DNA of 64,000 bases from NCBI GenBank assembly GCA_965219455.1, contig OZ244744.1:32001-96000 (forward strand), given 5' to 3'. Every line of letters starts with the position of its first letter. Within the stretch, counting starts at the first letter, position 1. Shown piece by piece: positions 62,673-64,000 of this stretch. The notes beneath the pieces were generated by a model. It saw only the letters and a list, made by a program, of their open reading frames with translations. It searched no databases and was not told where the DNA came from. A program made the position numbers and the translations under genes. This stretch comes from Candidatus Latescibacterota bacterium. GTDB taxonomy: Bacteria; Latescibacterota; UBA2968; GCA-2709665.

Positions 62673-62711
62673 GATCCCACCTCCTCTCGGTCAACGATTC
62701 TCCAACGATGC

Positions 62712-62932
62712 CTGGTGTCCCGTCCCAGAAATATGTCACCGTTCATGCGCCGATTCATCCCGTCTCGCTACGTTCCCTTCACTCGCTGCGCCCGTTCTGG
62801 TCCCGTCTCTTCAGGGCGCTGACGTCAACTGATTGGGTTTTTGATTCAAGCTGACGGCTGAGAGCTGATAGCTGTTTTTACTGCTTCTGGTCGGCCGAAT
62901 TTTGGCAATCTATTTCAGGGACAGAACACTGG
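62712..62932. mobile_element. MITE with the ends of the IS630 element at 11657-12841
   Basis: Left end TGTCCCGTCCCAGAAATA is 18/18 identical to the IS right end; right end is 15/18 to the IS left end; CTGG on both flanks. Confidence 0.85.
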
Positions 62933-62944
62933 ATACGGCGGATT

Positions 62945-63379
62945 TCACATCAGTTCAATCGCTTCGGGGACCTGACTCTGATGGGGATGATCGGGACCCG
63001 CGTAGATCCGGACCTTTTTCATCATTCGGCGCCCCAGTTTCGTACGCGGCAACATCCCTCGAATGGCGTGCTCCAGCACAAACTCCGGTTGCGTTTCGAG
63101 CGCCCGCCTGAGGGTTTTGGTTTTCAGGCCGCCTGGATATCCGCTATAGCGCTTATAAACCTTCTGTTCGGGTTTATTGGCGCCCTTGACAACGAGCTTG
63201 TCGGTGTTTACCACAACGACGTGATCGCCGGTATCCAGGTGCGGCGTATAAATTGGTTTGTGTTTGCCCATGAGAATCCGGGCCACCTCGCTTGCAAAGC
63301 GACCCAGTACTTTACCCTCCGCATCAGCCAGAAGCCATCTGCGTTCAACGTCGCACGCTTTAGCGCTTGGCGTATTCAT
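62945..63379 (-). CDS. rplM: 50S ribosomal protein L13
   Basis: W...[11 protein letters not shown]...[26 protein letters not shown]. Confidence 0.98.
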
Positions 63380-63460
63380 AAATCCACACGGCGTCCGCTT
63401 AGACGCCGCGTTCGAACTCACCTCCTCTCCAAGCCGGTTCCACGAAATGTTAAGCCTCAA

Positions 63461-63489
63461 AAGATATAGAGCGCGTGTGACTTTGTCAA
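63461..63489 (-). promoter_or_regulatory. sigma70 promoter of the rplM operon
   Basis: TTGACA-N17-TATCTT on the minus strand. Confidence 0.7.
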
Positions 63490-63508
63490 GCACAAACCCT
63501 TATGGGAC

Positions 63509-63565
63509 AGAAAAATGCGCCGCGATTCGGGAGCCGGTTGTCCGACCACATCCCATCACGGCGCA
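63509..63565 (-). terminator. Rho-independent terminator
   Basis: TGCGCCGTGAT / ATCGCGGCGCA stem followed by TTTTT. Confidence 0.7.
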
Positions 63566-63768
63566 ATTCTCGAGACGGCCTCCATCTCACGGCGCCCCGA
63601 ACACATAGCCGGGGCCCGTCGGAAAGACGGATCGCCTGTCTTTCGATGGCTGTTTAGATTCGCCAGGCGCGTTACCAGACGAGATGTTCTCCCGCACCCG
63701 GCAGCGCACCTAACTACAGCCACCTCCACTGGTCATTTCGCTCATTTGACCACCTCCTTTCTGTGTAA
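63509..63768 (-). ncRNA. Candidate structured small RNA containing an 11-codon ORF (63710-63745, MSEMTSGGGCS)
   Basis: Own promoter and terminator; about six hairpins; G-U pairs work only on the minus strand. Confidence 0.55.
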
Positions 63769-63773
63769 GCAAA

Positions 63774-63802
63774 AATATACGCCACCGGATCGCGGAAGTC
63801 AA
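63774..63802 (-). promoter_or_regulatory. sigma70 promoter for the candidate small RNA
   Basis: TTGACT-N17-TATATT. Confidence 0.7.
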
Positions 63803-63820
63803 AGGCTTTCTCCAGCCGGG

Positions 63821-64000
63821 TCAGGTCCGTGGATCCAGCGCATCCCGCAGTCCATCTCCGAGCAGGTTAAACGCCATTACGGACGAAAATATCGCCAGGC
63901 CCGGAAAGGTTAATACCCACGGCGCCCGCAGTACCAGTTCCCGTCCACCGGTCAACATCGCACCCCACTCAGGCGTCGGCGGCTGCGCGCCCAATCCCAG
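63821..64000 (-). CDS. DppC/OppC-type peptide ABC permease, C-terminal part (not in the ORF track)
   Basis: [16 protein letters not shown]...FPGLAI...[16 protein letters not shown]. Confidence 0.93.

Follow-up and report, generated by a model that had tools for sequence, protein, structure and literature searches.

The closest described relative of the locus reported here is Ms_IGR-5, an actinobacterial small RNA (sRNA) represented in Rfam by family RF02471 (Actinobacteria sRNA Ms_IGR-5). Published reports describe the RNA-seq validation of one homologue in S. lividans (PMC8079986), list the S. avermitilis counterpart among sRNA transcription units (PMC8780764), and mention ribosome footprints on the homologues of two mycobacteria, namely M. 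abscessus and M. smegmatis (PMC4974804). Our literature search, which covered partial texts and neither the original description nor its supplements, returned no functional description of Ms_IGR-5 and none of the short open reading frame (mini-ORF) architecture outlined below. The locus in question is located on the minus strand of a 64,000-nucleotide (nt) stretch of Candidatus Latescibacterota bacterium (assembly GCA_965219455.1, contig OZ244744.1, positions 32,001 to 96,000), hereafter termed the window, in which all positions are counted. It is a predicted stand-alone sRNA gene of ~257 nt, extending from 63766 to ~63510 and, as judged from sequence comparison, it is a divergent Latescibacterota member of a multi-phylum family whose actinobacterial branch is Ms_IGR-5. 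Very probably, it is a real sRNA of this family with a translated mini-ORF.

With Ms_IGR-5, the window RNA shares the 5' ACAC...AAGGAGGUGGUC leader, a hairpin with the start codon, a GAGGUGGCUG block, a variable hairpin whose foot holds a stop codon, the CUGGCGAAUC junction, a closing helix with CAGYCAYC, and probably the organization as a stand-alone transcription unit, which is predicted from the promoter and the terminator. Unlike Ms_IGR-5, it occurs in a different phylum, its ORF is offset by one base against the conserved block, which is read as SGGGCS where Ms_IGR-5 has EVAxx, and it possesses an extra domain formed by helices P4 and P5, a U-tract terminator, and rplM as a neighbour (helices and further features are listed in Table 1). 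Across phyla, the common anatomy consists of a promoter, the leader with a first Shine-Dalgarno (SD) block (SD1), hairpin P1 with the start codon, GAGGUGGCUG as second SD-like block (SD2), the stop codon at the foot of P3, the CUGGCGAAUCC block, and CAGYCAYC closing P2. In the window, the closing helix GGUGRCUGN / N'CAGYCAYC is found at the positions of P2 together with the CUGGCGAAUC junction, which occurs as CCTGGCGAATCT at 63667-63656. The leader ACAC-N-GAAAGGAGGUG(G/A)UC is located at 63766-63748 and is present in all 41 rows of an alignment of diverse members (A1), 36 of which are from other lineages. An NTG codon in the loop of the first hairpin and a stop codon 14-16 nt past the start of GAGGUG, a feature derived in this study, occur in the window as well.

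At the gathering score, Rfam gave no match in the whole 64-kb window. In E-value mode, RF02471 was matched at 63627-63766 with 26.8 bits (E 4e-4, model positions 1-184), which is the only match of this model in the genome at E<=1. Due to a score below the gathering cut-off of 45 bits, we file the locus as a distant relative or variant. None of the four Rfam matches at E<=10 in the region 63300-64000 is 6S RNA, signal recognition particle (SRP) RNA, transfer-messenger RNA (tmRNA), RNase P, or a ribosomal-protein leader, in agreement with the initial annotation, made from the sequence alone, which had been unable to assign the element to 6S, SRP, tmRNA, or RNase P. The novelty claimed there holds at the gathering score and is lost in E-value mode, where RF02471 appears and intermediates link the locus to members with 58-176 bits. 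Among 20 pattern-found loci, 11 exceed the RF02471 cut-off (49.6-176.5 bits), namely ten Actinomycetota-titled records (58-176 bits) and one of the Blastocatellia (49.6 bits), and nine of other lineages, including a Latescibacterota relative, stay below. By these scores, the window RNA looks like a point on a continuum that is only partly covered by the RF02471 model.

A first pattern scan of species-representative genomes for two SD blocks 10-40 nt apart resulted in at least 120 matches. Among the matches listed, record titles are mostly those of Actinomycetota, and the others comprise, among further lineages, Blastocatellia, Terriglobales, Planctomycetia, Latescibacterota, Zixibacteria, Sumerlaeota, and Eisenbacteria. 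Two of the Latescibacterota-titled records, L071 and L099, nearly match relatives of the window in sequence. Another scan, made with the GGAGGTGATC variant of perfect complementarity, likewise resulted in at least 120 matches and added titles of Streptomyces, Kitasatospora, Pyrinomonadaceae, Pirellulaceae, Ignavibacteria, and Spirochaetia. A record title is weak evidence for the phylum of its genome. A member in the Firmicutes is not claimed: the 8.4-Mb metagenome-assembled genome (MAG) titled “uncultured Heliobacteriaceae” (L056/G157) groups with the phylum sample of the Blastocatellia MAG, i.e., the acidobacterial sample, and carries an element of the acidobacterial type, and its title is probably wrong.

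The covariance model R1, built from the 41 members of A1, mostly finds one copy per genome. Matches were obtained in 72 of 151 own-phylum genomes (17 of 18 in the taxonomic family f1, 30 of 30 in f2, and weaker ones elsewhere), in 73 of 151 genomes of the phylum of the actinobacterial member (67 of 145 without six genomes flagged unpublished), and in 18 and 12 of 151 genomes of the phyla of the acidobacterial and planctomycete members, respectively. Furthermore, R1 aligned over its full length to 25 of 25 further loci from seven title-lineages. The 5.84-Mb genome of the window contains a single copy according to covariance-model searches with both RF02471 and R1. Within the same order, a 441-nt query was matched in 40 of 41 genomes, own genome included, and the sole miss is a genome of 92% completeness. 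Alignments of the order show conservation of the promoter hexamers, the 5' block, the ORF, the hairpins, and the terminator composed of a stem and a U-tract.

For SD1, the initial annotation had predicted a 15-nt pairing, including one G-U pair, with the typical 3' tail of 16S rRNA, and this pairing is borne out by the genome's own 16S end: the only 16S gene was located and its 3' end reads ...GGATCACCTCCTTTCTA. With -26.7 kcal/mol, the SD1 duplex ranks third among 95,771 SD-like windows in the genome, the first rank being held by the antisense of the 16S gene itself. The length of the G-U-tolerant run is without discrimination, as five other genome sites also reach 15, and duplex energies were used instead. 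AAGGAGGTGGTC is unvarying in A1 and in a further alignment, A2. A GATC variant of SD1 in other lineages is able to pair with the 16S tail as well; in the shared leader 5'-ACAC-N-GAAAGGAGGUG(G/A)UC, the variable position is G or A, either of which can pair with the U in GAUCACC of the 16S rRNA. For the window RNA, the predicted accessibility (unpaired) is 0.79 for SD1 versus 0.31 for SD2.

The start codon of the mini-ORF is situated 5 nt past the SD1 block and 7 nt past its GGAGG core. The proposed reading frame MSEMTSGGGCS-amber, its AUG in the TGGTCA/TGACCA loop, and the second SD-like block are all present, and both the anti-16S leader and the mini-ORF are conserved. The family-wide SD2 block GAGGTGGCTG begins at 63726 in the window, 14 nt ahead of the stop codon. 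For a quantitative comparison, 160 distinct family cores were pooled from the motif-pattern scans, which fix SD1 and SD2; all following core figures hold among the matches listed. An NTG start codon in or near the first hairpin loop and in frame with a stop codon was observed in 159 of the 160 cores, the remaining one being a Roseovarius-titled chance match, versus 227 of 3200 (7%) shuffles of the spacer and post-SD2 sequences. ATG, TTG, GTG, and CTG are used 99, 34, 18, and 8 times, respectively. The stop codons are TAG (116), TGA (24), and TAA (19), with all three found at the same position in Streptomyces-titled records, and no in-frame sense codon takes the place of the stop in the 159 cores. 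Counted from the first G of SD2, the stop follows after 14-16 nt in 158 of 159 cores, and the ORF comprises 11-12 codons in 135 of 159.

The spacers between SD1 and SD2 fill all length classes modulo 3 (81/27/51), and the SD2 block is read in three frames, as ...EVAxx (134 cores), ...SGGGC(S/R) (22 cores, i.e., Latescibacterota and one Eisenbacteria-titled record), and ...QRWLLQ (3 cores, planctomycetes). Within the order, the 3' part of the ORF is free of any synonymous variation, and residues 2-4, encoded in the P1 loop, vary freely. Since the frame is kept and the peptide is not conserved, these comparisons suggest that the act of being translated, rather than the peptide, is under selection.

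The strongest rival explanation is a purely non-coding structured sRNA, in which SD1 binds the 16S tail or a C-rich partner RNA without leading to productive translation, and constraints at the RNA level would have produced the start and stop codons incidentally. Such an RNA would account for the 3' two-thirds of the ORF, which are nucleotide-invariant in the order and lack synonymous change, and for the affiliation of the stop codon to the P3 foot and of SD2 to P2; the prevalence of UAG (116 of 159 among the matches listed) could reflect its pairing with CUGG. It does not account for a frame that is kept despite spacers of all modulo-3 classes and a block read in three frames, nor for a start codon that is always NTG and a stop that is realized by three codons without a single sense replacement in 159 cores. 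The ribosome footprints reported on homologues (PMC4974804) speak against it as well, and we consider a purely non-coding RNA unlikely.

Folding and comparison alike back the initial proposal of an RNA gene that is structured and strand-specific and has a promoter and a terminator of its own. The minimum free energy (MFE) of the minus strand is -129.8 kcal/mol (z -5.98; none of 200 shuffles folds equally well) versus -100.4 kcal/mol (z -4.07) for the plus strand, in agreement with the earlier strand assignment. The 80-nt hairpin described at 63645-63724 is present in the MFE fold and buries the stop codon, with eight instead of about nine G-U pairs among its 31 pairs, whereas the “three more hairpins” assumed to follow it are replaced in the comparison by helix P4 enclosing P5 and by the terminator. 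For counting, P1, P2, and P3 in the MFE register were combined with the RNAalifold 3' domain and the terminator, and 22 distinct relatives were used. For P3, the RNAalifold register was set aside in favour of the MFE register, which is 97.7% paired and agrees with the family-wide P3 foot. Overall, 94.0% of the cells are paired compared to 35-45% with slid partners. Double changes affect 17 pairs and 97 cells, compared to 35.9 +/- 5.7 in shuffles, and none of 500 shuffles reaches the observed value. Covariation, the absence of which was to speak against the proposed RNA, is hence present in the order (17 double-changed pairs) as well as across phyla (ninth pair of P2).

In P1, 93.9% of the cells are paired without compensatory change within the order. 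P2 is paired to 99.5% in the order and to 97% across phyla (A1); its ninth pair covaries across phyla (CG 24, UG 7, UA 5, GC 3), and a compensation from G-C to A-U occurs in the relatives L036 and L037. The lower stem and the upper part of P3 are paired to 97.7% and 78.4%, respectively, and the latter varies in length and sequence across phyla. At the P3 foot, the stop codon UAG (63712-63710) is paired in the MFE fold with CUG of the conserved CUGGCGAAUC block. The unpaired junction is kept in A1, in A2, and in the cmsearch alignments of other phyla. P4 is paired to 100% with five pairs changed on both sides, P5 contains three such pairs, and helices 8-10 of the terminator contain eight. The P4/P5 domain (63641-63573) is lineage-specific, and a compact planctomycete form of ~120 nt occurs without it.

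Two further observations concern P3 and its surroundings. The CUGGCGAAUCC block (63667-63654) is conserved in all phyla seen, with CUGG pairing with the stop region and GAAUC(C/U) staying unpaired. CAUCUC in the upper part of P3 (63686-63681) is unvarying in the order and complementary to the inner 5' strand of the terminator (63554-63549), where the partner GGAGAUG (GGGAUG in the window) is unvarying as well; a kissing or pseudoknot contact is possible.

The promoter TTGACT-N17-TATATT, which had been recognized from the start, is conserved in relatives, and alignments show its hexamers at a constant distance. Within 62800-64000, two promoter-like sites were counted compared to 0.5 +/- 0.8 in shuffles, the second one being the rplM promoter (63489-63461). 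Approximately 8 nt past the -10 element the sequence reads ACACAGAAAGGAGGTGGTC, and ACAC occurs at the same distance before the SD block in every phylum seen. The predicted terminator ahead of a separate rplM promoter was likewise recovered, with a covarying stem, the U-tract, and a conserved CTTGACA downstream. A simple terminator scan made no call at 63564-63509, because its rule demands a loop of 3-8. The locus was recovered from four metatranscriptomic runs: X16 provided a 233-nt contig of exact identity (63628-63860) and X8 a 509-nt contig (63226-63734), and in X17 and X18 long contigs of a ~90%-identical relative span the whole locus. Such contigs indicate presence in RNA libraries and are silent on ends, strand, and level; likewise, stretches that they leave uncovered are not evidence.

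Table 1. Features of the sRNA locus and of the adjacent rplM gene (window positions, all on the minus strand).
Feature	Position	Sequence or composition	Basis or remark
sRNA promoter	63802-63797 (-35); 63779-63774 (-10)	TTGACT, 17-nt spacer, TATATT	10/12 consensus matches
Inferred 5' end	63766	A of ACAC, 8 nt past -10 element	Promoter geometry
SD1	63762-63748	AGAAAGGAGGTGGTC	15-nt complement (one G-U) of 16S 3' tail
P1 hairpin	63752-63747 / 63735-63730	TGGTCA / TGACCA	AUG (63745-63743) in 11-nt loop
Mini-ORF	63745-63710	ATG AGC GAA ATG ACC AGT GGA GGT GGC TGT AGT TAG	MSEMTSGGGCS, 11 codons + stop
SD2	63727-63720	GGAGGTGG	Within ORF; unvarying in A1/A2 alignments
P2	63724-63716 with 63653-63645	GGTGGCTGT with ACAGCCATC	Closes P3 domain, sequesters most of SD2
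P3 long hairpin	63714-63662	Foot GTTAGG / CCTGGC	
Junction	63661-63654	GAATCTAA	Unpaired, between 3' strands of P3 and P2; consensus GAAUCC-N3
P4 long-range helix	63641-63626 with 63586-63573		RNAalifold; encloses P5
P5 hairpin	63619-63616 / 63592-63589		RNAalifold
Intrinsic terminator	63564-63517 (stem with inner hairpin); 63516-63509 (U-tract)	U-tract ATTTTTCT	Covarying stem + U-tract
rplM promoter (separate)	63489-63461	TTGACA-N17-TATCTT	CTTGACA -35 conserved in both taxonomic families f1, f2
rplM	63379-62945		L13 by Pfam PF00572, E 4.4e-44

The position of the element suggests a second rival explanation, namely a cis-acting leader or attenuator of rplM-rpsI in the Latescibacterota, whose terminator would be conditional and whose read-through would feed ribosomal-protein expression. 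The element is indeed located directly upstream of the genes of L13 and S9 in 20 of 20 f1 loci and in 17 of 20 others from the order, the X8 contig bridges the terminator into rplM, and a theme of ribosome loading would suit ribosomal proteins. Yet rplM has a separate conserved promoter past the terminator, four relatives contain extra sequence between the terminator and this promoter, and a contig over two genes does not equal one transcript. Neither the L13 leader of Rfam (RF00555) nor any other ribosomal-protein leader gave a covariance-model match at E<=10 in the region 63300-64000, and both a terminator and a separate promoter intervene before rplM. Among the matches listed in the first scan, L13 is nearby in only 2 of 80 loci, both Latescibacterota-titled, and in the actinobacteria the following gene is convergent. 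A leader function is thus considered quite unlikely; judging from gene order, the linkage to rplM is a lineage-specific inherited synteny outside the mechanism, and the functional link to the ribosomal operon that had been implied initially is abandoned.

Gene neighbourhoods of the actinobacterial and other-phyla loci revealed no common theme and no functional hint. Next to actinobacterial members, FUR-family, THAP4_heme-bd, GCV_T, and DsrE genes were found, and in the other phyla DAHP synthase, peptidase S9, amidohydrolase, aminotransferase IV, NrtR/NUDIX, Usp, dehydrogenases, and an OPT transporter. Near the actinobacterial member L046, a Guanidine-II riboswitch (36.8 bits) and Sernc389 (95.9 bits) were observed (L046:93-145 and L046:2059-2653), which are probably unrelated neighbours.

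A small-peptide gene, in which MSEMTSGGGCS itself is functional, is compatible with the strong SD, the conserved ORF, and the maintenance of TSGGGC(S/R) within the order. In other phyla, the same nucleotides are read as ...EVAxx or ...QRWLLQ, i.e., in three frames altogether, residues 2-4 vary freely, and conservation is at the nucleotide level without synonymous change, so that this proposal of the initial annotation is very unlikely to apply. Type I toxin-antitoxin (TA) mRNAs encode a hydrophobic toxin peptide of ~20-60 amino acids (aa) and are accompanied by an overlapping or nearby antisense RNA. A TA-like mRNA or an amber read-through protein, both also suggested initially on grounds of the strong folding of the mRNA, in which the stop is buried, and of 52 aa that are indeed obtained by read-through in the window, can practically be dismissed: the peptide consists of 11 hydrophilic residues without a hydrophobic stretch and is not conserved in sequence, the locus is single-copy, read-through in 22 relatives would yield non-homologous products of 20-95 aa with frame changes through indels, and Pfam gave no match in the 131-aa plus-strand frame or in the overlapping 57-aa and 40-aa frames.

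The reading that we favour, and regard as reasonably probable, is a dedicated mini-mRNA that loads ribosomes via SD1 and thereby engages ribosomes or senses translation. The ribosome-binding sRNA listed among the first interpretations hence still represents the best family of explanations. SD1 at the 5' end can pair with the whole 16S 3' tail, with the start codon offered in the P1 loop. By structure and covariation, SD2 is locked in P2 of the free RNA and the stop codon is paired at the P3 foot, and therefore both helices would have to be opened by a ribosome reading the 11 codons. Once the stop codon occupies the A site, the geometry would place GAGGUG ~6 nt from the P-site codon; as this spacing is initiation-like, the anti-SD of the terminating ribosome could re-pair with SD2 and the ribosome could be held. 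Since the ORF is about one footprint long, SD1 would be free again as the first ribosome reaches the stop. In trans, the RNA may act as a decoy or reservoir that ties up 30S or 70S particles or, alternatively, as a sensor whose 3' strand (CUGGCGAAUCC...CAGYCAYC) would be exposed only during translation. Such a holding or sensing function is put forward tentatively. It is tempting to speculate that the family as a whole represents a multi-phylum “ribosome-docking” class of mini-mRNAs, with one single-copy sRNA per genome, loading at SD1 through the entire 16S 3' tail, a one-footprint ORF of 11-12 codons, and a terminating ribosome parked on SD2; at present, we regard this generalization as doubtful.

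Several observations weigh against the mini-mRNA and its placement in the family. By the Rfam rule, 26.8 bits compared to a curated cut-off of 45 bits do not make the locus a member of RF02471, and R1 derives from the same pattern-gathered sequences. The cores were gathered with patterns that fix SD1 and SD2, Actinomycetota predominate among them, and related entries do not count as independent. Within the order, no variation occurs in P1 or in most of P2, and independent compensatory events are few, because most double changes separate two families. The contrast in accessibility is weak family-wide, with medians of 0.41 for SD1 versus 0.29 for SD2 and SD1 above SD2 in 115 of 158 cases. Finally, contigs from RNA libraries extend beyond the predicted 5' end (X16 to 63860) and cross the terminator into rplM (X8). 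Due to the fact that these contigs overrun both predicted ends, they cannot define them, and the transcript boundaries given here are inferred.

If such a ribosome-docking class exists, a single RNA would hold up to two ribosomes and serve as reservoir, as anti-SD protector, or as read-out of translational capacity, which would make it a ribosome-associated regulatory RNA without described counterpart. The family of Ms_IGR-5, listed as actinobacterial, extends well past the Actinomycetota to Latescibacterota, Acidobacteriota, and Planctomycetota, with distant members missed by the Rfam model and, by record titles, also to Zixibacteria, Sumerlaeota, Eisenbacteria, Ignavibacteria, and Spirochaetia. 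The invariants of the family are ribosome signals, i.e., an extended SD, a start codon, a second SD at a set distance from the stop, and the stop codon itself. The family may thus offer a testable entry point to the question of how translation is monitored or buffered in bacteria whose sRNA systems are not well studied, with Streptomyces and Mycolicibacterium smegmatis as tractable carriers.

Some observations were made on the adjacent ribosomal-protein operon and elsewhere in the genome. The 5' untranslated region (UTR) of rplM contains GGAGAGGAGGTGAG (63430-63417), which is complementary to the 16S tail over 14 nt if G-U pairs are tolerated (-24.7 kcal/mol) and lies ~38 nt ahead of the rplM ATG (63379), whose own SD is weak. 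A GC-rich hairpin (63411-63388) follows GGAGAGGAGGTGAG, and a GTG at 63421 is in frame with rplM; GGAGAGGAGGTGAG could serve as standby site or L13 operator or belong to an alternative start. The spacer that separates rplM from rpsI contains a ~226-nt insertion (62706-62931) that is missing in most relatives, whose S9 starts ~220 nt earlier and whose RNA contigs skip from 62705 to 62932. A BLAST search of 62690-62945 against the own genome gave 213 rows, 212 besides itself, with 80-93% identity, so that the insertion looks like a dispersed short repeat of the miniature inverted-repeat transposable element (MITE) or repetitive extragenic palindromic (REP) type in a ribosomal-protein operon. Elsewhere in the own genome, e.g., at C1:4391007-4417066 on the minus strand, a cluster of at least six sites shares the near-identical context GCGT...GGAAGGAGGTGATAT(C/T)GGAA(T/A)CCAC with 12-15-nt complementarity to the 16S tail; these sites resemble a repeated gene or a family of repeats in which the SD-like sequences are very strong.

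Compared to known systems, the mini-ORF RNA combines features that otherwise occur in different settings. The frameshift site of prfB, encoding release factor 2 (RF2), contains an internal SD-like sequence few nt before an in-frame stop, and the anti-SD pairs with it as the stop is reached. Similarly, SD2 lies few nt ahead of the in-frame stop of the mini-ORF. Unlike the prfB site, the mini-ORF is not accompanied by a conserved longer +1 frame, its spacing is initiation-like, and it belongs to a separate sRNA instead of a protein gene. With leader-peptide attenuators, the mini-ORF RNA has in common a short ORF in a small terminated RNA in which the position of the ribosome would decide the fold, and rnTrpL of Sinorhizobium meliloti provides an example of an sRNA released from such an attenuator (PMC6614838). 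Unlike attenuators, it has no regulatory codons family-wide, its SD is far stronger than that of typical leaders, a regulated downstream gene is lacking in most lineages, and a co-oriented downstream gene is found only in some. Dual-function sRNAs such as SgrS/SgrT and SR1/SR1P are translated and encode a conserved, functional peptide. Unlike these, the RNA described here has a peptide that is not conserved; like them, it is sRNA-sized and, in our reading, translated.

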